Positions 41,914-49,516 of a stretch of DNA of 64,000 nt are shown in pieces (the first letter of the stretch is position 1; the number at the start of each line of letters is the position of its first letter). The notes beneath the pieces are model-generated. The model was not told the DNA's origin. It ran no database searches and worked only from the letters and a program-made list of their open reading frames with translations. Source of the DNA: Bacillota bacterium (lineage in GTDB: Bacteria > Bacillota > Clostridia > Acetivibrionales > DTU013); NCBI GenBank assembly GCA_023435305.1, contig JAEYRV010000053.1, forward strand, positions 64,762-128,761, read 5' to 3'. Position numbers and translations under genes: made by a program.

Positions 41914-42621
41914 ATGTATCTTTTAGCGTTGGCTGTCGCACCCTCCATAGCAATATTGGTCTATATTTATACCAAGGATAAATATGACAAGGAGCCGAAG
42001 AAATTCCTGCTGCTTCTTTTTGGACTCGGCTGTCTGACTGTTATTCCCGTTTGTATTCTGGAACTGATCATACAGGGTGTGGCCGGATTTGACAAATCCC
42101 TGCCCAGCGTGTTCCTGGAAGCATTCTTCGGGGTAGCTCTGATAGAAGAGGGCGTCAAGTACTTTGTCATGAGAACTGCGGCAGGGAAACGCTGCAGACA
42201 TTTTAACCAAATGTTCGACGGCATCGTATATTCTGTTTACATTTCACTGGGCTTTGCAACTGTAGAAAATATACTATATGTATTTCAAAATGGATTCACC
42301 ACCGGTGTTATGAGAGCCCTCACGGCGGTGCCGTGTCATGCGATCACCGCTGTAGCCATGGGATACTATCTGGGGATCGGCAGATTCCGTGTGGACACCC
42401 GGGACAGGAACAAATTCATGGCATTGGGTCTGATCGTGCCTGTGATACTGCACGGTGTATATGATTTTCTTGTTCTTTCGGGAAATACGATCCTTGTGCT
42501 GATTTGTATCCCATTCATAGTATTTATGTATATTTACGCATTCAAAAAAATCAAGAAGCTTGCAGCATACAACCATATGGTCAGGGATGAGGAAACCGGA
42601 AAGATCACCGATCTTTCATGA
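41914..42621 (+). CDS. prsW: PrsW family intramembrane glutamic/metalloprotease
   Basis: 235 aa. It has the motifs EEGVKY and HGVYDF in a multi-TM protein, as in the PrsW family. Confidence 0.8.
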   Translation: MYLLALAVAPSIAILVYIYTKDKYDKEPKKFLLLLFGLGCLTVIPVCILELIIQGVAGFDKSLPSVFLEAFFGVALIEEGVKYFVMRTAAGKRCRHFNQMFDGIVYSVYISLGFATVENILYVFQNGFTTGVMRALTAVPCHAITAVAMGYYLGIGRFRVDTRDRNKFMALGLIVPVILHGVYDFLVLSGNTILVLICIPFIVFMYIYAFKKIKKLAAYNHMVRDEETGKITDLS

Positions 42622-42725
42622 ATATGTGCAGGTCTTATGCCTTTGCTGCCGTTGTTATATACTGTGATTTGTTAGTTGTCTGACTTGTTGGTATTATATA
42701 TGTATCGACAGCAAAGGATTTGATT

Positions 42726-45395
42726 ATGAAGAAACTTGTCATAGGAATACTGGCACATGTTGATGCCGGCAAGACAACCTTATCAGAGAGCCTGCTATAT
42801 TTGAGCGGCAGGATCCGCAAGCTGGGCAGGGTGGACAACAGGGATGCCTATCTGGATAATTATGAGCTTGAAAGGGCCCGGGGCATCACCATTTTTGCCA
42901 AGCAGGCAGTTTTTGATACAGTGGATGCCCGGATCACACTGCTGGATACCCCCGGCCATGTAGATTTTTCAGCCGAAATGGAGAGGACGCTCCAGGTGCT
43001 GGATTATGCGATCCTGGTAATAAGCGGGGCAGACGGCATACAGGGACATACCAGGACCTTGTGGCGCCTGCTTTCTGTCTATCGGATACCTGTCTTTATT
43101 TTCATCAACAAAATGGATCAGAACGGTACGAATAAAGAAATAGTAATGGCCCAATTGAAAAAACAGTTGGATGACAGTTGTATCGAATTCACACAGGATG
43201 AAACAGACCATTTCCGCGAACAGTTGGCCATGTGTGATGAGGCCCTGATGGAGGCTTACCTTGATAAGGGCAAAATCGGGGTCGGTCTTGTCAGGGAAAC
43301 GATAAAAGCGCGTAGAATATTTCCGTGCTTTTTTGGTTCTGCCTTAAAGCTTGAAGGTGTGGATGAGTTCCTGCAGAGTCTGGTGATGTATTCTGATATG
43401 CCCTCGTATCGGGAAGAATTCGGAGCCAAAATATTCAAGATAAACAGAGATGACCAGGGAAACCGCCTTACTCATATGAAAATAACCGGAGGAAGGCTCA
43501 AGGTGAGGGATACATTGGGCAACGGTTCCCAAACGGAGAAGGTCAATCAGATAAGAGTCTATTCGGGACAAAAATTCGAAACGATAAATGAGGCGGAGGC
43601 AGGAACGGTATGTGCGGTGACCGGGCTTACCCGGACCAGGCCGGGAGAAGGTCTGGGAACGGAGGAAACCTCCGGCGCGCCTGTACTGGAGCCTGTGCTG
43701 TCATATCGGATAATACTGCCTGAGGGCTGTGATCCAAGGGTGATGCTCCCCAAGCTTCGCCAGATCGAGGAGGAGGAGCCTGAGCTTCGTGTTGTATGGG
43801 ATGAAAGCCTTAAAGAAATCAGAGCGCAGATAATGGGAGAGGTACAGACAGAGGTACTGCAAAGTACTATACAAAGCAGGTTTGGTATCGAAGCTGGTTT
43901 CGGATCAGGAAGGATACTTTATAAGGAGACCATTGCAGATAAAGTGGAGGGAGTCGGGCATTTTGAACCGCTGAGGCATTATGCGGAGGTGCATTTGCTG
44001 ATGGAGCCGGGAGAGCCCGGAAGCGGCCTTCGTTTTGCAGTTGACTGCAGTGACGATGTATTGGCTAAGAGCTGGAAGAATCTGATCCTGACTCATCTGG
44101 AGGAGAAGGTCCACAAAGGTGTCCTCACAGGCTCTGCAATAACGGATATGAAAATCACTTTAATCTCAGGCAAAGCCCATAACAAGCATACGGAAGGCGG
44201 GGACTTCAGAGAGGCGACTTACAGGGCTGTACGCCAGGGACTTATGGAAGCTCAGTCCGTATTGCTGGAGCCCTTCTACTCTTTCAGCCTTGAGGTTCCC
44301 GATAATCTTATAGGCCGGGCAATGTCCGATATTGAAAAAATGTCAGGAACCTGCAATGTCACCGAGATAACAGGTGAGACGGCAGTGCTTGAAGGGATCG
44401 CACCCGTAGCCGCCATGCAGAATTACCAGAAAGATGTGGCGGCATATTCAAAAGGCCTTGGCAGGCTTTTTTGCAGCCTGATGGGATACAGGCCCTGTCA
44501 TAATACCGAAGAAGTGGCGGAGATGATAGGATACGACCCTGACAGAGATATTGCAAATCCTGCATGGTCGGTATTCTGTGAAAATGGCGCAAGCTTTCCG
44601 GTCAACTGGGACAGTGTTAAAGACTATATGCATGTGGAAAGCTGCTTCAGCAAGAGCAGTGACAGCATCGGGGAAACAGAGCAAAAGCCGGATCCCGAGT
44701 GGAAAGAGGAGCAATGGATCGGCCCCGAGGAGGTCGACAGGATATTCAAGCGCACTTTTTTTGCCAATCAGGGGAAGAAAACCGTCTGGAAGAAGCGCAA
44801 GGCTGCCGCCGGAAGCTATCATGCGCCATCGCCGTCAGCAGATACCGGCAGATCAGGAGAAATCGGGAAGCTGACGGCAGCGAAGAATGAGTATCTGCTT
44901 GTGGATGGCTACAATATTATTTTTGCATGGCCCGAGCTAAAGGAGCTTGCCGATGAGAACATGGACGGGGCCAGATCAAAGCTGATCGATTATCTAAGCA
45001 AATATCAGCACTTCAGAAAATGCCGCATCATTGTCGTGTTTGATGCATACCGCGTGCTCGGGCATAACGAAGAGATGATCGATTATGGCAATGTTTATGT
45101 TGTTTTTACAAGGGAAGCCCAGACAGCAGATCACTTTATCGAGAAATTCGCCCACAGCAACAAGCACAGATATGACATAACTGTTGCGACCTCGGACGGC
45201 CTGCAGCAGATAATAATAAGAGGCGCAGGCTGCGCTGTTATTTCTGCCAGAGACTTGAAGGAAGAGCTCATCAGCGCTGATAGGAAAATAATGCAGGCAT
45301 ATCATGAAAAACAGCAGCCGGGACGCAATTATATCGGAGATGTGCTGCCCGATGAGAAAAAGCAGCAGATCGAAGAAATCACAAAGGATGAATGA
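42726..45395 (+). CDS. EF-G/TetM-like translational GTPase fused to a C-terminal YacP/Rae1-type NYN ribonuclease domain
   Basis: About 889 aa. The N-terminal roughly 640 aa are collinear with TetM/EF-G-type GTPases: G1 AHVDAGKT, G2 RGITI, G3 DTPGH, G4 NKMD, then domain II-V-like sequence. After a basic linker of about 90 aa (…KKTVWKKRK…), residues from about nt 44889 read EYLLVDGYNIIFAWPELK…IIVVFDAY…TADHFIE…VATSDGLQQIIIRGAG. That segment is collinear with B. subtilis YacP (LLVDGYNMIGAW…VVFDA…TADERIE…VATSD). I prefer the ATG at 42726 (AAAGGA RBS); the ORF opens at 42720. Confidence 0.85.
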   Translation: MKKLVIGILAHVDAGKTTLSESLLYLSGRIRKLGRVDNRDAYLDNYELERARGITIFAKQAVFDTVDARITLLDTPGHVDFSAEMERTLQVLDYAILVISGADGIQGHTRTLWRLLSVYRIPVFIFINKMDQNGTNKEIVMAQLKKQLDDSCIEFTQDETDHFREQLAMCDEALMEAYLDKGKIGVGLVRETIKARRIFPCFFGSALKLEGVDEFLQSLVMYSDMPSYREEFGAKIFKINRDDQGNRLTHMKITGGRLKVRDTLGNGSQTEKVNQIRVYSGQKFETINEAEAGTVCAVTGLTRTRPGEGLGTEETSGAPVLEPVLSYRIILPEGCDPRVMLPKLRQIEEEEPELRVVWDESLKEIRAQIMGEVQTEVLQSTIQSRFGIEAGFGSGRILYKETIADKVEGVGHFEPLRHYAEVHLLMEPGEPGSGLRFAVDCSDDVLAKSWKNLILTHLEEKVHKGVLTGSAITDMKITLISGKAHNKHTEGGDFREATYRAVRQGLMEAQSVLLEPFYSFSLEVPDNLIGRAMSDIEKMSGTCNVTEITGETAVLEGIAPVAAMQNYQKDVAAYSKGLGRLFCSLMGYRPCHNTEEVAEMIGYDPDRDIANPAWSVFCENGASFPVNWDSVKDYMHVESCFSKSSDSIGETEQKPDPEWKEEQWIGPEEVDRIFKRTFFANQGKKTVWKKRKAAAGSYHAPSPSADTGRSGEIGKLTAAKNEYLLVDGYNIIFAWPELKELADENMDGARSKLIDYLSKYQHFRKCRIIVVFDAYRVLGHNEEMIDYGNVYVVFTREAQTADHFIEKFAHSNKHRYDITVATSDGLQQIIIRGAGCAVISARDLKEELISADRKIMQAYHEKQQPGRNYIGDVLPDEKKQQIEEITKDE

Positions 45396-45506
45396 TCATA
45401 CTGACTAAGGCACAAAGTCAGCAATACAGGTTAGGATGGACTTATTGACATAAATACTGATTATCGTTAATCTTAATTTATATCGATGTATTAGCGGGGT
45501 GTTTTA

Positions 45507-48506
45507 ATGGAAGAACGGTATCCGTTCAAATATGATGCTTTCATAAGCTACAGGCACTGTGAGCCTGACAAGAGTGTCGCCGACAGACTCCACAGGATGC
45601 TGGAAGGCTTCAGGATCCCGAAGTCGATAGCGAAGACCTGCGGGCGGAAGCAAATAAAGCGTGTCTTCAGAGACAGGGAGGAACTCCCTACCTCATCAAA
45701 CCTTGCCGGTAATATTACCGAAGCACTGAAGGACTCGGAGTTCCTGATAGTGATCTGCTCTCCAAGGACACCTGAGTCTCAGTGGGTCTTAAAGGAAATA
45801 GAAGATTTCAAGGCGATCCATGGTCATAACAAGGTACTTGCCCTTTTGATCGAAGGCGAACCAGGAGAGTCATTCCCTGAGCAGCTTTGCTATGTAAAGA
45901 GCAAGGATGTGTACGGGGATGGGAGCGGGGCGGAAGAAGTAATACAGGTTGAACCGCTTGCTGCAGATATCAGGGCATCTTCGGAAAAGGAGATGTTCAA
46001 AAAGCTCAGGACAGAAATGCTTCGCCTGCTTGCTCCAATGCTGAACTGCGGGTATGACGATCTGAGGCAGCGCCACAGGGAGCGAAGGATAAAAGCCATA
46101 TTAACGGCTTCAATATCGGTTTCGGCATTTTTCATTGCCTTTGGGGCCTTCAGCATGTATCAGTCAATGGTAATCAGCAAGCAAAATCATGAAATCAGCA
46201 AAAAAAATGAAGAAATAGTTGTACAGATCGAAAAAACGCAGATAAGCCAGTCAAGATATCTTGCTGATATTTCATCCAGACTTTTGAAAGAGGGAGACCG
46301 CTACAGAGCGATCCTGGTAGCCCGTGAAGCTCTGCCGAAGGATCTGGACAACAAGGACAGGCCCTATGTAGAAGAGGCGGAATATGCGCTTGCCCGAGCG
46401 CTGGGAGTCTATGAGATCGATACGATGTACGACATGGACATGGTCCTGGATCACAACAAACCAGTCAGCTACATCGAGCTGAGTCCGGACAGTAAAACAC
46501 TGCTGACATTGTCAGGTGACGGCTATTCACGTATGTGGAATGTGGAGGACGGCAAATGTATAGGTGAGTATTTCACTAATCATTCATCACTGTTCAGCGG
46601 CGATACGATTGAGTTTATTGACAACGGTACAATTGTTTCGGGTAACTACGAAAATATCACTTGTTTCGATATAGAGGGGAATTTAAAGTGGCAGAGGGAG
46701 TTCATAGCAACAAAGATAAGTGTTTCAGGGAACAGAGTTGCCGTTTTGTCATCAAGAGATATTATGGTACTGGATGCATCCACCGGTGATACTATCGTTG
46801 AAATCGACCTGGAAAGTCATATGGACTTCACGGACTTCAGCAGCTTTATAAGCAGTATCAGTTTCAGTGCTGACGGCGGCATGATAGGCATAGGCAGCAA
46901 CTTTGGCAAGGCATTTGTGTTTGAAACAGAGACCGGAAAAATGCTTGAATCATACAGTACTGGCCTGCAGTTTGTGTCAGATCTGGCCTTTTCACCTGAG
47001 GGATACATTGCGGTGGCTTCAACTGAGGGTACTGATGATCTGCTTGGGAGAGGGAACGGTATGCTGGATGTCTATTCGACCCAGGGGGGAGAACCCGGTA
47101 TTTCAATAGCATTCACACATGCGGCAGTTGATAATGTGCAATTTTCTTCTTTTGACACAAATATGATAATTTTAACGGAAGGGGAAAAATTGAATGTTTG
47201 TGATATCAGCAGCGGAAAGGTAGTATATTCCTTTATAAGCGGAGACAATATTACTGACTACGAAGTATATGACGGCTTTATTGTCACATCCTCCAATGAT
47301 GGGACGATAAGATTCTGCTTCATGAAAAACAGCGGGTACGAAAGCGAATGGCACAGGATCACCCGCCCTGAGCCGATAACAGGCATGGAAATCGGCAACG
47401 GCAGTATAGCTATAACATGTCAGTTATCAAAAAAGGTATACATAATGAATGTATTATTCAATGACAATACCATAAAGCTTGCAGATCATAATGACTCTAT
47501 CTCCAGAGCGGATTTTTCTCCTGATGGCAGTATGTCTGTGAGCGCAGGGAATGATAGTGAACTGGTGCTTTGCAGTTTATCTGATAAAAAGATTGTTAAT
47601 TCTGTTTCTCTCGACAGCAGCATAAAAGACTGCAGATTTGTAAAAAACGACAGGATAATTGTAGTTCTTTCAGATGGAGGAGTCATGCTTCTGGACAATG
47701 ATCTGCAGACCATAAAGGAAGAGACTACGGAAAGCATATCATGGGTAAGCTATGGCCCTGATGACACAGCTTTTGCCATATGCTGCGGCAAACAGGTAAC
47801 AGTGTTTTCTTCAGATGACCTCAGGACGATCGCGTCCGTTGAAGCCGGATATTCGGCCTCATGCTCATTTTCTTCCGATAATAAGCTTATGCTTTCCGAC
47901 CGCAACGGCATAGCCAAGCTTGTCGATCTCAATACCGGTCTGGAGACATTGCTGGGCGATGATGCAGGTATGGTCACAGGTGCGGTAAGCGGTGACGGAA
48001 CGAAATATGCATTGGCCTGGGATGATAAAACAATTAAGCTTTACGATACCGTGGACAGAAATAAGGAACCCGTTATTATGAAGGGCGCTGTCAATGATGC
48101 TGTCACACTGATTTTCAGTCCAGACTCCAAATTGCTGTTTGCCGGCTATGACGACTATGGAATCGAAATATTCAACTGCCAGGACGGAAGCCTGCTGACT
48201 GCCATTAGCTCTGATTTCTTCGGGAGCGGTCTGGGAAGAGTCATATTCAGCAGGGATGGCAGCCGTATTGCATGTATCGATAAATCAAAGTACGCTGTTA
48301 TTATGGATTCATCTTCGTATAAAATACTTGCACGGGTATCGATAGCAGATATAGACAGTAATTTTGAAAAAATATTGTCCTACTGGAGCTCGGAGCTGTT
48401 CCTTGCTCCGGTCTATACTACGCAAATGCTTCTGGATGAGGCTGATAAGCAGCTAAATGGCAGGACACTCACTGAGAGAGAAAAGATAGAGATGTTTATA
48501 GAATAG
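45507..48506 (+). CDS. TIR domain, single TM helix and WD40/PD40-like beta-propeller repeat protein
   Basis: 999 aa. The N-terminal TIR_2-like domain is YDAFISYRHCEPDKSVADRL…RDREELP…FLIVICSPRTPESQWVLKEIEDF. A basic stretch, RQRHRERRIK, is followed by the TM helix AILTASISVSAFFIAFGAFSMY (about nt 46095-46160). There are 10 or more propeller-blade-like repeats (SPDSKTLLTLSGDGYSRMWNVEDG, FSPDGSMSVSAGND, FSPDSKLLFAGYDD, FSRDGSRIACIDKS…). Confidence 0.85.
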   Translation: MEERYPFKYDAFISYRHCEPDKSVADRLHRMLEGFRIPKSIAKTCGRKQIKRVFRDREELPTSSNLAGNITEALKDSEFLIVICSPRTPESQWVLKEIEDFKAIHGHNKVLALLIEGEPGESFPEQLCYVKSKDVYGDGSGAEEVIQVEPLAADIRASSEKEMFKKLRTEMLRLLAPMLNCGYDDLRQRHRERRIKAILTASISVSAFFIAFGAFSMYQSMVISKQNHEISKKNEEIVVQIEKTQISQSRYLADISSRLLKEGDRYRAILVAREALPKDLDNKDRPYVEEAEYALARALGVYEIDTMYDMDMVLDHNKPVSYIELSPDSKTLLTLSGDGYSRMWNVEDGKCIGEYFTNHSSLFSGDTIEFIDNGTIVSGNYENITCFDIEGNLKWQREFIATKISVSGNRVAVLSSRDIMVLDASTGDTIVEIDLESHMDFTDFSSFISSISFSADGGMIGIGSNFGKAFVFETETGKMLESYSTGLQFVSDLAFSPEGYIAVASTEGTDDLLGRGNGMLDVYSTQGGEPGISIAFTHAAVDNVQFSSFDTNMIILTEGEKLNVCDISSGKVVYSFISGDNITDYEVYDGFIVTSSNDGTIRFCFMKNSGYESEWHRITRPEPITGMEIGNGSIAITCQLSKKVYIMNVLFNDNTIKLADHNDSISRADFSPDGSMSVSAGNDSELVLCSLSDKKIVNSVSLDSSIKDCRFVKNDRIIVVLSDGGVMLLDNDLQTIKEETTESISWVSYGPDDTAFAICCGKQVTVFSSDDLRTIASVEAGYSASCSFSSDNKLMLSDRNGIAKLVDLNTGLETLLGDDAGMVTGAVSGDGTKYALAWDDKTIKLYDTVDRNKEPVIMKGAVNDAVTLIFSPDSKLLFAGYDDYGIEIFNCQDGSLLTAISSDFFGSGLGRVIFSRDGSRIACIDKSKYAVIMDSSSYKILARVSIADIDSNFEKILSYWSSELFLAPVYTTQMLLDEADKQLNGRTLTEREKIEMFIE

Positions 48507-48526: not shown

Positions 48527-49516
48527 ATGAGTAAAACTATTGTCAACTGGGGAGTGATCGGGTGTGCCGAGATCGCTGAAAAATCTGTGATCCCCGGAAT
48601 ACTTGCCGCAGAGAATGCCAGATTGTACGCTGTCTCAAGCAGGTCGGCGGGAAGCAGGCTGGATGATTTCCGGGACAGGTTCAGCCCTGTCAAAGCCTAT
48701 ACAAGCTATGAAGAGCTATTGGAAGACCCGGAGATAGATGCCGTTTACATTCCTCTTCCGAATTCGCTCCATTATGAATGGACACTGAAGGCTGCTGAAA
48801 GTAAAAAGCATATATTGTGTGAAAAGCCTCTCGGGATCAACGCTGAAGAGGTAAAAGCCATGAAGGCGGCCGCGGATAAAAACGGTGTATTATTAATGGA
48901 AGCCTTCGCTTACCGTCACAGTCCTCTGACCAGGAAAGTGAAGGAGCTTGTGGATGCCGGCACAATAGGTAAAATCAAATTTATGGAATCACATTTCAGC
49001 TTCATTCTGAACAACCCGGCGAATGTAAGGCTTGTTTCGGAGCTTGGAGGAGGAGCGACCTATGATATCGGATGCTACAATCTGAACATCATCAGATATA
49101 TCATCGGTTCAGAACCCACCAGGATCACGGCCTCCGGGGAGGTGGATCACAGGACCGGAGTCGATATGAGCAGCTGTATCATGCTTGAGTTTGAGGGCGG
49201 GGTAAAGGCTGTATCATATTGCTCATTTGCATGCTCCCCCAGAGTAGAATACACCATTGTAGGCGAGGCCGGCTATATTCATGTTCCTGTTGTGTTTAAT
49301 GCAGCCGGGGACAACACTATTAAAATCGTCCGGAATGACGGAAAAGAAGAGATAGTCATAGACTGTCCCCACAATTATATGCTGGAGGTAGAGCAGTTCG
49401 GAAGGTGCATACTAAACGGGGAAAAACCGTTGATCACCTATGAGGAATCACTCGGCAACGCAAAAACTATCGACTCGGTACTGGAACAAATCGTTCCTCC
49501 TGCGGAGATGAAATAG
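48527..49516 (+). CDS. Gfo/Idh/MocA family oxidoreductase
   Basis: 329 aa. It has an N-terminal Rossmann motif NWGVIGCAEIAEK and the EKP motif (ILCEKPLG). GAGGAGG lies 20 bp after the upstream stop. Confidence 0.88.
   Translation: MSKTIVNWGVIGCAEIAEKSVIPGILAAENARLYAVSSRSAGSRLDDFRDRFSPVKAYTSYEELLEDPEIDAVYIPLPNSLHYEWTLKAAESKKHILCEKPLGINAEEVKAMKAAADKNGVLLMEAFAYRHSPLTRKVKELVDAGTIGKIKFMESHFSFILNNPANVRLVSELGGGATYDIGCYNLNIIRYIIGSEPTRITASGEVDHRTGVDMSSCIMLEFEGGVKAVSYCSFACSPRVEYTIVGEAGYIHVPVVFNAAGDNTIKIVRNDGKEEIVIDCPHNYMLEVEQFGRCILNGEKPLITYEESLGNAKTIDSVLEQIVPPAEMK

Follow-up and report, generated by a model that had tools for sequence, protein, structure and literature searches.

Can a TIR NADase be gated across the membrane by a single helix? 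This question is raised by one gene in a 64-kb stretch of DNA from a clostridial species of gut or rumen (hereafter the window), which encodes a protein of 999 aa. To our knowledge, the characterised bacterial TIR enzymes are all soluble and respond to events inside the cell. The best reading of this gene product, from its sequence, is a predicted single-pass type II (N-in/C-out) membrane receptor. A first-pass annotation had proposed the domain order of TIR, basic stretch, single transmembrane (TM) helix and large repeat domain, and this order is real. Its interpretation stood for the architecture, the glutamate and the predicted topology; the anti-phage framing gained no support from the context.

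The features of the gene are collected in Table 1. The ATG start of the open reading frame has the upstream ribosome-binding site GGGG(T)G, and the gene probably has its own promoter within the leader; this promoter is inferred only, because a simple consensus promoter scan listed no site passing its rules there. The homology search returned a protein 100% identical to the window protein (P0001) and more than 3,000 homologues, with E-values in the family down to 0, and these matches are far above chance level. The AlphaFold2 model of the complete protein has a pLDDT of 87.6. The HMM searches recommended in the first-pass annotation gave both TIR_2 and WD40 above threshold. An NTPase domain was absent from the window protein in the Pfam and NCBIfam searches. 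A STAND/NLR-like TIR sensor of the Avs or bNACHT type was thus rejected, as the central P-loop STAND NTPase is missing and residues 180-305 are made up of the TM helix, stalk and helical cap.

Table 1. Features of the TIR-propeller gene and its leader, in window coordinates.
Feature	Position	Strand	Basis
Leader, 111 bp, intergenic; TTGACA box and GGGG(T)G ribosome-binding site before ATG	45396..45506	+	sequence reading
Complete ORF, 999 aa, TIR - TM - stalk/cap - double WD40 propeller	45507..48506	+	ORF listing
TIR domain, residues 9-179	45531..46043	+	Pfam, AlphaFold2 model, ApTir comparison
Codon GAA, Glu97, TIR catalytic-glutamate position (W93 + 4)	45795..45797	+	codon read, alignments
Basic juxtamembrane motif CGYDDLRQRHRERRIK, residues 181-196, conserved, predicted cytoplasmic	46047..46094	+	alignments, charge statistics
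Single predicted TM helix AILTASISVSAFFIAFGAFSMY, residues 197-218	46095..46160	+	only hydrophobic segment
Stalk helix 219-261 and helical cap 265-299 ('LLKEGDRYRAILVAREALP...RPYVEEAEYALARAL'), before propellers	46161..46421	+	AlphaFold2, alignments
Tandem WD40-type double beta-propeller, residues 306-968, predicted extracytoplasmic	46422..48410	+	Pfam, AlphaFold2, Foldseek
C-terminal helical tail, residues 969-999, conserved	48411..48503	+	AlphaFold2, alignments

The N-terminal domain belongs to the TIR domain superfamily (Pfam clan STIR), with three profiles above their curated thresholds. TIR_2 (PF13676) matched residues 12-131 with 39.4 bits against a gathering score of 28, and gave 44.5 bits with the isolated N-terminus. 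PF01582 (TIR) matched residues 43-173 with 28.7 bits (35.2 for the isolated N-terminus; cut-off 21.3), and the ThsB_TIR model scored 29.7 bits (32.9; cut-off 21.2). The first-pass annotation was right about a TIR_2-type domain but placed its end too early, at about 140 aa; since the PF01582 alignment reaches residue 173, the domain ends at about 175. It contains an inserted beta-hairpin (129-147), a conserved 'VEPLAADIR' strand and a final helix (160-179). The AlphaFold2 model displays an alternating strand/helix pattern over residues 9-179 with pLDDT of about 80-88, and the Foldseek list for the whole model was filled by propeller matches.

A glutamate is present at the catalytic position of enzymatic TIR domains on helix alphaC, and it is the conserved Glu after the S-x-W motif pointed out before. 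In alignments, E97 falls on the Glu of 'SKWCLMEL' of the L6 TIR from flax and on that of 'SPWVNQEIE' in ApTir, a protein of Actinoplanes sp. ATCC 31044 / SE50 whose TIR domain is 35% identical to the window TIR (E 6e-15). Glu97 is invariant in family alignments of 35 and of 95 sequences (95/95), and so is the surrounding S-x-W-V-x-x-E-I motif in the 95 sequences. The isolated TIR domain of ApTir is listed as a cADPR producer in Table S2 of PMC9092222, and ApTir is listed as an NADase, attributed to Essuman 2018, in PMC8494770. The best reading of the output is NAD+ cleavage or nucleotide signalling. The glutamate does not assure NADase activity, because the isolated TIR domain of a TIR-TM homologue from Bacteroides ovatus, which is 30% identical to the window protein across residues 8-196, yielded no product in vitro (PMC9092222 Table S2). 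Many other TIR domains carrying Glu at the catalytic position are given as inactive in the same screen, and no assayed member of the clostridial family was found in the literature.

The only hydrophobic segment of the protein, AILTASISVSAFFIAFGAFSMY, reaches a Kyte-Doolittle 19-residue mean of 2.01, and no window elsewhere in the protein exceeds 1.2. It has the 22 residues described in the first-pass annotation, and the basic stretch RQRHRERRIK precedes it. In the juxtamembrane motif, C181, L186 and R189 are invariant in both family alignments (A1, A2), D184 is invariant in A1 and nearly so in A2, and D185, Q188, H190, E192 and R193 are nearly invariant; the actinobacterial counterpart of the motif is 'EGEDVRQHRRARRL'. 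A hydrophobic segment is found at the equivalent position in 34 of 35 family members, and a TM helix with a Kyte-Doolittle 19-residue mean of 2-3 in 100 of 102 ApTir-like proteins. Lys and Arg in the 15 residues flanking the helix average 6.2 before and 2.7 after it. The N-terminal flank is the richer one in 100% of 207 family sequences (94 + 113) and in 90% of the ApTir-like set. One TM helix and a positive-inside bias, the sequence features of a type II receptor, are thus both present, and the orientation drawn earlier from the positive-inside rule, with the TIR domain predicted to be cytoplasmic and the propellers outside, is predicted consistently for all 207 members.

Composition of the part behind the helix was compared with proteins encoded in the same loci. 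Its net charge per residue (-0.063) resembles that of secreted proteins (-0.059) and not that of cytoplasmic ones (-0.023), and its cysteine content of 1.18% lies between the secreted (0.94%) and the cytoplasmic (1.56%) values. In the window protein the helix is of only moderate hydrophobicity, with a summed Hessa-scale estimate of about +0.4 kcal/mol. The window protein has no signal peptide, and none of the family members was found to carry a classical cell-surface domain by which the orientation could be settled.

The region after the membrane had been described as a short coiled region. Instead, AlphaFold2 predicts one unbroken helix from residue 183 to 261, of which the TM helix is a part, followed by a conserved helical cap; the stalk and cap helices have pLDDT of 83-96, and G263, P286 and Y302 are invariant in the family alignments. 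Stalk length varies within the family, with a median of 43 aa; in some members the coiled coil is as long as about 156 aa, and with ApTir included the stalks span about 30 to about 190 coiled-coil residues. Beyond the cap, WD40 (PF00400) matched with 42.9 bits (cut-off 27), ANAPC4_WD40 with 55.5 bits (cut-off 22.9), and many further propeller models of Pfam also match. Repeat profiles and fold together identify a WD40-type beta-propeller. The propeller region has about 63 strands, mostly with pLDDT above 90, and therefore about 15-16 blades in two propellers; the repeats were recognised correctly in the first-pass annotation and their number, 'at least ten', is corrected accordingly. The alternative label PD40 found no support in the window protein, and PQQ_2 was marginal. 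The best Foldseek matches are tandem WD40 propellers (2ymu, Utp21, Aip1, Apaf-1; E down to 1.7e-29), all of them cytosolic or nuclear proteins. The tail, with helices at 972-983 and 990-995, has 50% mean identity, with L975 invariant in A2 and P968, A979 and L988 nearly invariant.

The TIR-TM-propeller family is very large and unstudied at full length. Clustered at 50% identity, it has at least 2,724 clusters (E<=1e-30), and in species-representative genomes, mostly those of Lachnospiraceae, at least 572 stretches matched. With this size and with the actinobacterial homologue ApTir, the architecture is no oddity. The statement that it is functionally uncharacterised applies to full-length members, as no functional study of one was found in the literature search, but not to the isolated TIR domain of ApTir, which was assayed as an NADase. 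Mean identity across the family is 25-28% in the propellers, 62% in the TIR domain and 52-64% in the N-terminal module. In comparison with an 82%-identical orthologue, dN/dS is 0.10-0.19 in the main domains (0.15-0.19 in the propellers), and the gene is therefore under purifying selection; dN is 0.12 in the propellers versus 0.05 in the signalling module. Two or tandem paralogues are found in some genomes.

The genomic context is that of housekeeping genes and not of a defence island. The window locus is syntenic with the locus of the 82%-identical orthologue, and the neighbours in the window and in related loci are housekeeping or transport genes which differ between lineages. PADLOC has no model matching the window protein or DHH-X, the putative partner in related loci (see below), and no relatives were found on viral contigs. 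The context thus gives no support to the anti-phage framing of the first-pass annotation. Thoeris was also rejected: a ThsA-type neighbour (SIR2 or Macro/SLOG) is absent in the window and in the 87 related loci clustered, and PADLOC called no Thoeris in the window. The NCBIfam models Thoeris_type3_ThcB4 (16.6 bits; cut-off 220) and retron-TIR (15.4 bits; cut-off 600) remained far below their thresholds.

We further found a conserved gene near related TIR receptors, named DHH-X here, which encodes an NrnA/DhhP-like DHH-DHHA1 phosphodiesterase of about 500 aa. It adjoins the receptor gene in 45 of 87 loci and lies within four genes of it in 50, in four different arrangements, with gaps often of -4 to +40 bp. 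Conversely, a TIR module is present at 36 of 80 DHH-X loci, and at 20 of the 47 where both flanks are available. DHH-X holds all catalytic motifs (DxD, D, DHH, D, GGGH), and the catalytic residues of the DHH, DHH-motif and GGGH are invariant; identity is 50-60% across families. Fold and catalytic motifs are common to the stand-alone DHH-DHHA1 phosphodiesterases NrnA, Rv2837c/CnpB, the GdpP catalytic domain, S. aureus Pde2 and Borrelia DhhP (Foldseek E of about 1e-17 to 1e-14 over about 340 columns). DHH-X differs from them in its genomic linkage to a TIR receptor and in an extra C-terminal all-beta domain of about 180 aa, for which no Pfam or PDB sequence match was found. The partner suggests nucleotide signalling or turnover, not a stand-alone killer. 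DHH-X also occurs without a TIR gene nearby, and therefore may have an independent housekeeping role. In the entire 64-kb window DHH-X is absent (tblastn, E 1e-3), and it is also missing at the closest relatives (L001, L002, L008), so that the window locus does not contain the two-gene module of TIR-TM-WD40 and DHH-X as defined here.

ApTir is one of the closest known proteins, and sequence comparison indicates that the clostridial family is homologous to actinobacterial TIR-TM-coiled-coil-WD40 proteins including it. ApTir and the window protein have the TIR domain, acidic-basic juxtamembrane motif, TM helix, coiled-coil stalk and helical cap in the same order, with a similar cap motif ('RRLLGQAGEARDRDPRTAIQLGIAA' vs 'SRLLKEGDRYRAILVAREA'). 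This order was compared from the TIR domain to the cap; the propeller is known from relatives of ApTir, which combine TIR_2 with a WD40 propeller. The actinobacterial proteins differ in size and layout: the relatives have about 600-700 aa and a single propeller, on a long stalk of about 190 aa. The ApTir literature examined deals with the isolated TIR domain only, and the membrane and propeller parts were not found addressed there.

Animal Toll-like receptors, like the receptor predicted here, are single-pass proteins with an external repeat or solenoid sensor and a cytoplasmic TIR domain, and a presumed common logic is that external ligand-driven dimerisation unites the TIR domains inside. 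They are type I proteins with a signal peptide, an N-terminal LRR ectodomain and a C-terminal TIR domain, which serves as a scaffold for MyD88/TRIF adaptors and is not an enzyme. The window protein has the opposite polarity and a WD40 instead of an LRR sensor. An animal-type Toll-like receptor was rejected on its N-terminal TIR domain, its WD40-type repeats and the lack of a signal peptide and of any LRR Pfam match, and nothing was found to indicate that the two architectures as a whole share an ancestor. They resemble each other only in their logic, which makes the protein an analogue and not a member. The topology predicted here is identical to that of the Gram-positive receptor Ser/Thr kinases, with a cytoplasmic N-terminal enzyme, juxtamembrane linker, TM helix and C-terminal external sensor. 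These kinases carry an external NHL beta-propeller in M. tuberculosis PknD or PASTA repeats in PknB/PrkC and are activated via ligand-induced dimerisation; the output domain here is TIR and not a kinase, and the sensor is a WD40-type double propeller. A TIR domain with Glu at the catalytic position is also common to Thoeris ThsB, TIR-STING, TIR-SAVED, SPARTA TIR-APAZ and SARM1, which act on NAD+ in a self-association-dependent manner. Those proteins are soluble, cytoplasmic and triggered by intracellular cues or second messengers, and, unlike the bacterial ones, the window protein has no ThsA, STING, SAVED or Argonaute partner. Finally, residues 306-968 match Apaf-1 and other tandem WD40 sensors best (3sfz, 2ymu, 1nr0, 4nsx), in which two fused propellers form a ligand-binding clamp. 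The matches are cytosolic or nuclear, at 10-19% sequence identity, and the STAND ATPase of Apaf-1 is absent here.

We give about an even chance to a single-pass receptor in which external propellers gate NAD+ cleavage or nucleotide signalling by the TIR domain, with DHH-X as partner in about half of the loci. The propellers, outside the membrane of the monoderm bacterium, would bind a surface or cell-wall-associated cue. Binding would change how the receptor oligomerises, or shift the register of the stalk, TM and linker helices, and thereby let the TIR domains self-associate, as TIR NADases must in order to be active. NAD+ might then be cleaved to nicotinamide and ADP-ribose or a cyclic ADPR-type nucleotide, as by the isolated TIR domain of ApTir. 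Cytoplasmic DHH-X would turn over, or respond to, this nucleotide, and the system would be an outside-in nucleotide signalling pathway and not merely an NAD+-depleting suicide switch. The window copy, an 'orphan' without adjacent DHH-X, may use a distant partner gene or act alone. Candidate roles are phage or competitor sensing and envelope or developmental signalling; the housekeeping surroundings and the vertical inheritance in a syntenic locus are more in keeping with a physiological role.

The hydrophobic segment might instead form the core of a coiled-coil oligomer, or anchor the protein only peripherally, and the protein would then be a wholly cytoplasmic sensor. Its propellers would recognise a target inside the cell, for instance a phage protein, in the manner of Apaf-1 or STAND/Avs-type sensors, and thereby activate the TIR NADase. 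The cytosolic location of the nearest structural matches including Apaf-1, the cysteine content, which is not clearly depleted after the helix, and the moderate hydrophobicity of the window helix fit this explanation. We consider it improbable, since the segment is conserved in position in both the clostridial and the ApTir-like sets and is strongly hydrophobic in the latter, and the charge bias found in every one of the 207 sequences would be needless for a soluble coiled coil. An NTPase or other switch domain is moreover absent. A third reading is a non-enzymatic TIR domain, which would either be a scaffold for protein-protein contacts, like the TIR domains of animal TLR signalling, or, in what is mainly a surface adhesin or cell-wall organiser, anchor a cytoplasmic partner. 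The inactive TIR domain of the B. ovatus homologue and the many inactive Glu-bearing domains in the PMC9092222 screen speak for such roles, both of which we regard as very improbable: the invariance of Glu97 and S-x-W-V-x-x-E-I is hard to account for without catalysis, the homologue ApTir is active, and the conserved neighbouring gene codes for a nucleotide phosphodiesterase whose catalytic motifs are intact, and not for an adaptor.

With defence as the role and NAD+ depletion as the effector step, the receptor model narrows to a dedicated abortive system against phages or competitors. The propellers would detect phage adsorption, DNA injection or an envelope toxin, and the TIR domain would deplete NAD+ and stop growth. 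A role of bacterial TIR NADases as effectors in defence is established (Thoeris, TIR-STING, SPARTA), the propellers diverge faster than the signalling module, in identity (25-28% vs 62%) as in dN, and paralogues occur in some genomes. Nevertheless such a system appears unlikely to us, given the syntenic housekeeping and transport surroundings, the lack of PADLOC matches for receptor and DHH-X and of relatives on viral contigs, the overall purifying selection on the propellers, and a partner that is a highly conserved housekeeping-type enzyme.

If the external sensor of the membrane-spanning TIR receptor is true, bacteria couple surface recognition directly to NAD+-derived chemistry, which is the formal logic of animal TLRs built from different parts and with opposite polarity. 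We tentatively extend this to a functional counterpart of TLR logic in Clostridia (gut, rumen) and ApTir-clade Actinobacteria, although we think it somewhat doubtful as a whole. The external propeller would recognise a surface pattern, e.g. a phage, another cell nearby or a fragment of wall or host glycan, and via the one membrane helix would activate the cytoplasmic TIR enzyme. The NAD-derived nucleotide would serve as second messenger, with a DHH-DHHA1 phosphodiesterase dedicated to reading or erasing it. Thousands of species would then possess an outside-in route of nucleotide signalling that has so far gone unrecognised. Lachnospiraceae, in which the family is abundant (Roseburia, Butyrivibrio, Agathobacter), are major members of gut and rumen communities, and ADPR-type metabolites have been reported in gut microbiomes. 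The signal, product and DHH partner of the family could therefore matter for the dynamics between phages and their hosts, for the sensing of other cells or of the host, and for the ADPR-type metabolite pool.

The gene of the receptor, as we call the window protein with its TIR domain, membrane helix (TM), stalk and cap, and double WD40 propeller, follows a 111-bp intergenic leader and has a G-rich ribosome-binding site 5' of its ATG. Its N-terminus matches the Pfam family TIR_2 at 39.4 bits (gathering score 28), and at 44.5 bits when this part is scanned alone. The PF01582 alignment spans residues 43-173, so the TIR domain extends to about residue 175 and is longer than the roughly 140 aa assigned to it in the first-pass annotation. 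A phmmer comparison to PDB sequences pairs SPRTPESQWVLKEIEDF of the window protein with SGYADSKWCLMELAEI of the flax L6 TIR domain, which places Glu97 at the catalytic glutamate position. Kyte-Doolittle scanning found only one hydrophobic segment, residues 197-218, where the 19-residue mean peaks at 2.01; elsewhere in the protein it never rises above 1.2. Many WD40-type propeller models of Pfam match residues 300-980, and no Pfam family matches the linker/TM/cap region (141-310) or the C-tail.

An AlphaFold2 model of the window protein was built from the 95-sequence family alignment (mean pLDDT 87.6, pTM 0.73), and its elements are listed in the table together with the genes discussed here. 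The earlier description as a TIR domain, a single hydrophobic helix and propeller repeats is correct overall, subject to three adjustments: beside the longer TIR domain, the repeats are present and are of WD40 type with about 15-16 blades, and the supposed coiled region after the TM helix is a portion of one long helix. The best PDB matches of the model in Foldseek are tandem WD40 double propellers, with E down to 1.7e-29, including 2ymu, Utp21 and other SSU-processome WD proteins, Aip1 and Apaf-1. Every one of these best matches resides in the cytosol or the nucleus, a caveat on the topology proposed below.

Coordinates of the receptor, its structural elements, and the genes near it or its relatives
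Feature	Location	Position	Strand	Remark
PrsW-type intramembrane (site-1) protease	window	41914-42621	+	NCBIfam 194 bits, cut-off 225; two genes upstream of receptor
EF-G/TetM-like GTPase - YacP-type NYN fusion, 891 aa	window	42720-45395	+	directly upstream of receptor
Receptor ORF	window	45507..48506	+	999 codons, ATG start
Gfo/Idh/MocA oxidoreductase	window	48527-49516	+	begins 20 bp past receptor stop codon
Alpha/beta TIR domain	window protein	residues 9-179		AlphaFold2 model
Single unbroken helix containing the hydrophobic segment	window protein	residues 183-261		AlphaFold2 model
Helical cap	window protein	residues 265-299		AlphaFold2 model
About 63 beta strands	window protein	residues 308-968		AlphaFold2 model
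Two C-terminal helices	window protein	after the strands		AlphaFold2 model
TIR-TM-WD40 tandem pair	related locus L011	2781-5900 and following gene		
Membrane protein gene, ~499 aa	related locus L007	6330-7796	-	Rossmann-like middle, C-terminal RyR-like domain
DHH-X	related locus L010	9004-10500	-	
DHH-X	related locus L024	9024-10586	+	
DHH-X	related locus L043	152-1651	+	

In 34 of the 35 members aligned, the hydrophobic segment occupies the same place. Lys and Arg residues were counted over 15 residues on either side of it. The N-terminal flank holds 6.2 and the C-terminal flank 2.7 in the family alignment A2 (n = 94), against 6.5 and 2.7 in the representatives of 50% clusters (n = 113), with an N-terminal excess in 100% of both sets; in proteins like ApTir, a TIR protein of Actinoplanes, the values are 4.8 and 2.9, with the excess in 90% (n = 100). 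In actinobacterial homologues the segment is strongly hydrophobic (19-residue mean 2-3), so the homologous position is hard to read except as a membrane span. The window protein has no signal peptide and 196 residues precede the span; the consistent prediction is thus N-in/C-out, with a cytoplasmic TIR domain and external propellers, as in the Toll-like topology proposed at first. Two measures of composition gave a mixed picture: the net charge per residue after the span is -0.063 and matches predicted secreted (-0.059) and not cytoplasmic (-0.023) proteins of the same loci, and the Cys content of 1.18% lies between those of secreted (0.94%) and cytoplasmic (1.56%) proteins. The stalk from membrane to cap is mostly 30-55 residues long, lengthening to a coiled coil of 100-156 residues in some members and of about 190 in ApTir, and this variable length would fit a spacer pushing the domain through the cell wall, no proof in itself. 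No classical cell-surface domain was found at the C-terminus of family members, which carry only propellers or unassigned sequence there. Altogether, we regard a location of the propellers outside the membrane as quite probable.

Of 8,000 candidates scored in a search of 5.8 billion proteins, 3,392 match at E<=1e-5. Nearly all of the top 120 have a length of 965-1,116 aa and contain TIR_2 and propeller domains; their names are simply 'TIR domain-containing protein' or 'WD40 repeat protein'. By phmmer against 1.84 billion cluster representatives, residues 1-305 match 2,724 clusters at E<=1e-30, a number that rises to 9,280 at E<=1e-10. At least 572 matching stretches were confirmed by scanning one genome per species; the best 80 of these loci come nearly all from Lachnospiraceae (Roseburia, Butyrivibrio, Agathobacter, Acetatifactor), the others from Ruminiclostridium, Epulonipiscium, Clostridiaceae, Cellulosilyticaceae and Oscillospiraceae. 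Some genomes encode two TIR-TM-WD40 paralogues, such as L010 and L015 in one metagenome-assembled genome, L045 and L052, and the tandem pair of L011. The 3,072 TIR domains from gut metagenomes of Bangladeshi children in Table S1 of PMC9092222 include one that belongs here, RSYIYDAFISYRH...LIAEGEPSEVFP.

Conservation differs strongly along the protein. Mean identity to the window protein is 62% for the TIR domain, 64% for the linker (141-196), 52% each for the TM helix and for the stalk and cap, and 50% for the C-terminal tail, with only 28% and 25% for propellers 1 and 2. Little or no variation is seen across the family alignments at Glu97 or in the motifs FISY-H, FRD-EL, EPLAAD-R and DDL-QRHRER. 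Compared to the 82%-identical orthologue (locus L001), the TIR, linker, TM/cap and propeller regions show a dN/dS of 0.10-0.19 and the short tail at the C-terminus one of 0.36, and these low values denote a functional receptor gene. Purifying selection acts on the propellers, more loosely than on the TIR domain; their dN/dS of 0.15-0.19 rules out gene-wide positive selection at this resolution.

ApTir of Actinoplanes sp. ATCC 31044 is listed with the product cADPR in Table S2 of Weagley et al. 2022 (PMC9092222), sourced to Essuman et al. 2018. Its printed sequence consists, in order, of the TIR domain, KEDLDGEDVIRHRQMLRMRR, a hydrophobic helix, the coiled coil and RRLLGQAGEARDRDPRTAIQLGIAARHIYPGP, the last being similar to the cap motif of the window protein. 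The two TIR domains share 35% identity (E 6e-15) with the Glu aligned. A search with ApTir found 168 relatives in Actinobacteria, Chloroflexota and Dormibacterota; among the 102 of at least 260 aa, 100 possess the single helix near residue 185, where it follows the conserved motif EGEDVRQHRRARRL, and many consist of TIR_2 and one WD40 propeller in about 600-700 aa. Bovatus_RS13830 of Bacteroides ovatus aligns across residues 8-196 (30% identity, E 1e-18), with a membrane helix next. These matches to ApTir and B. ovatus indicate that the TIR-linker-TM module is an old unit common to several phyla, and the window protein belongs to the TIR and WD40 superfamilies and, with ApTir, to a TIR-TM-propeller superfamily. 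The isolated TIR domain of Bovatus_RS13830 gave no product in the screen that lists ApTir (PMC9092222), so that the assayed carriers of the module are one active and one inactive; none of the 160 domains assayed there is a clostridial family member. No description of the membrane and propeller parts, the receptor family or the DHH linkage was found in the literature searched, that on ApTir included.

All ORFs of 87 loci were clustered by all-against-all BLASTP, and one neighbour stood out. DHH-X, a DHH-DHHA1 phosphoesterase of about 500 aa (DHH 53-55 bits), lies within four genes of the receptor in 50 of the 87 loci, and in 45 the two are immediate neighbours. Next in frequency come an ABC ATPase, which 12 loci have within four genes, and GlnS, which adjoins the receptor gene in 10. 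In the 51 loci with positions for both genes, DHH-X shares the receptor's strand in 29 cases upstream and in 14 downstream, and has the opposite strand in 8; gaps often measure -4 to +40 bp. Reciprocally, a TIR module lies within 7 kb of DHH-X in 36 of 80 metagenome loci, and likewise in 20 of the 47 loci with at least 3.5 kb on both sides; DHH-X is also found without a TIR neighbour. The DHH-X family has 3,631 matches, with 50-60% identity between clostridial families. Its catalytic motifs (D21/D23, D84, D104-H105-H106, D157 and GGGH 280-283) are invariant in 51 sequences. The structure model (pLDDT 91.2) matches NrnA, Rv2837c/CnpB, the GdpP catalytic domain, TM1595, Pde2 and DhhP at E of about 1e-17 to 1e-14. 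An additional all-beta C-terminal domain of about 180 residues has no Pfam match and no PDB sequence match, and matches to the DHH part occupy the Foldseek list for the whole model. Receptors of the DHH-X loci share only 27-46% identity with the window protein, and DHH-X is absent from the 64-kb window. The window gene is thus an orphan copy of a family that is often half of a two-gene module. Of the two paralogues in the L010/L015 genome, one adjoins DHH-X and the other does not.

Two further DHH-X loci were noted. In Defluviitalea saccharophila (CP121687, locus L089, 6001-13476) three genes come after DHH-X, encoding proteins of 162 aa, 778 aa (TIR_2-Trypsin_2) and 984 aa (TIR-TM-WD40), so that two different TIR proteins cluster with one DHH-X; the TIR-Trypsin protein has another TIR type and no clear TM helix, and the topology argument leaves it aside. 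On a Methylomusa-like contig (L090, 6001-13494) DHH-X has no TIR neighbour and lies beside a secreted 452-aa protein, a 700-aa PD40/Tricorn propeller protein with Calx-beta and Integrin_beta domains and an nSTAND1-CHASE2 protein, a neighbourhood that is conflict-system-like.

The mechanism proposed here would build on features that are directly seen or predicted with good support: how the domains are ordered, a catalytic residue without variation, one span whose charge bias is uniform, a stalk, TM segment and linker that form one continuous helix, two propellers in tandem, and the link to a nucleotide phosphodiesterase with intact catalytic motifs. The propellers would bind something at the cell surface; binding would alter the association of the helices and thereby assemble the TIR domains into the active oligomer which, to our knowledge, all known TIR NADases need. 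The TIR domain might then cleave NAD+ to nicotinamide and ADPR or a cyclic isomer, and DHH-X might hydrolyse or sense the product. Kaur et al. 2020 (PMC7159879) describe conflict systems in which nucleotide-generating TIRs recurrently occur together with a phosphodiesterase, there of calcineurin type. The main uncertainty is experimental and concerns topology, activity and ligand.

In its working the protein would resemble the Gram-positive receptor kinases PknD or PknB, but its output is a TIR domain and it is not a member of that group. It shares the logic of TLRs and differs from them in polarity, repeat type and the enzymatic TIR, and is no member there either. Thoeris was ruled out, with no ThsA found and family models far below cut-offs; the only NCBIfam models matching the window protein are those of Thoeris and retron-TIR, far sub-threshold. 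A STAND/NLR-type TIR sensor was excluded since the protein has no NTPase. Our literature search found no functional description of a bacterial TIR-TM-WD40 protein, of membrane-anchored TIRs or of a DHH-TIR link.

The receptor may act in defence or kin recognition or may have a physiological role, and both the fast-diverging propellers and the paralogy are compatible with the former. Defence-island context is lacking around the gene, and this and three other observations count somewhat against a classical mobile defence gene. PADLOC gave nothing significant for the window protein, its two neighbours and DHH-X; the viral-contig scan found no relatives, and a phage-borne origin was rejected; and synteny with the L001 orthologue is stable across at least 12 genes. 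The GC content at the locus is unremarkable, the genes on either side of the receptor in the window are unrelated to it, and more distant members are flanked by unrelated transporters and metabolic genes.

The fusion protein upstream of the receptor comprises GTP_EFTU and EF-G domains II-V (tet_protect 424 bits, below the 775 cut-off) and a C-terminal YacP/Rae1-type NYN ribonuclease domain (177.6 bits), a composition suggestive of an RNase docked on the ribosome; L001 encodes the same fusion. The Gfo/Idh/MocA gene has its own GGAGG site, and no terminator separates it from the receptor gene. The two may be co-transcribed, in this clade only (also L001 and L002). Proteolytic release of the tethered TIR domain is a conceivable activation route given the PrsW-type neighbour, which is kept in L001 and missing from other loci, and its presence is therefore probably coincidental synteny. 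In six loci without DHH-X (L007, L021, L028, L061, L078 and L085) the gene adjoining the receptor codes for a membrane protein (about 499 aa) with a Rossmann-like middle part, whose C-terminal RyR-like domain scores 25.5 bits with PF02026, under the gathering score of 27.4. The match is curious, as animal ryanodine receptors are classically modulated by cADPR; this neighbour may be mere clade-specific synteny.
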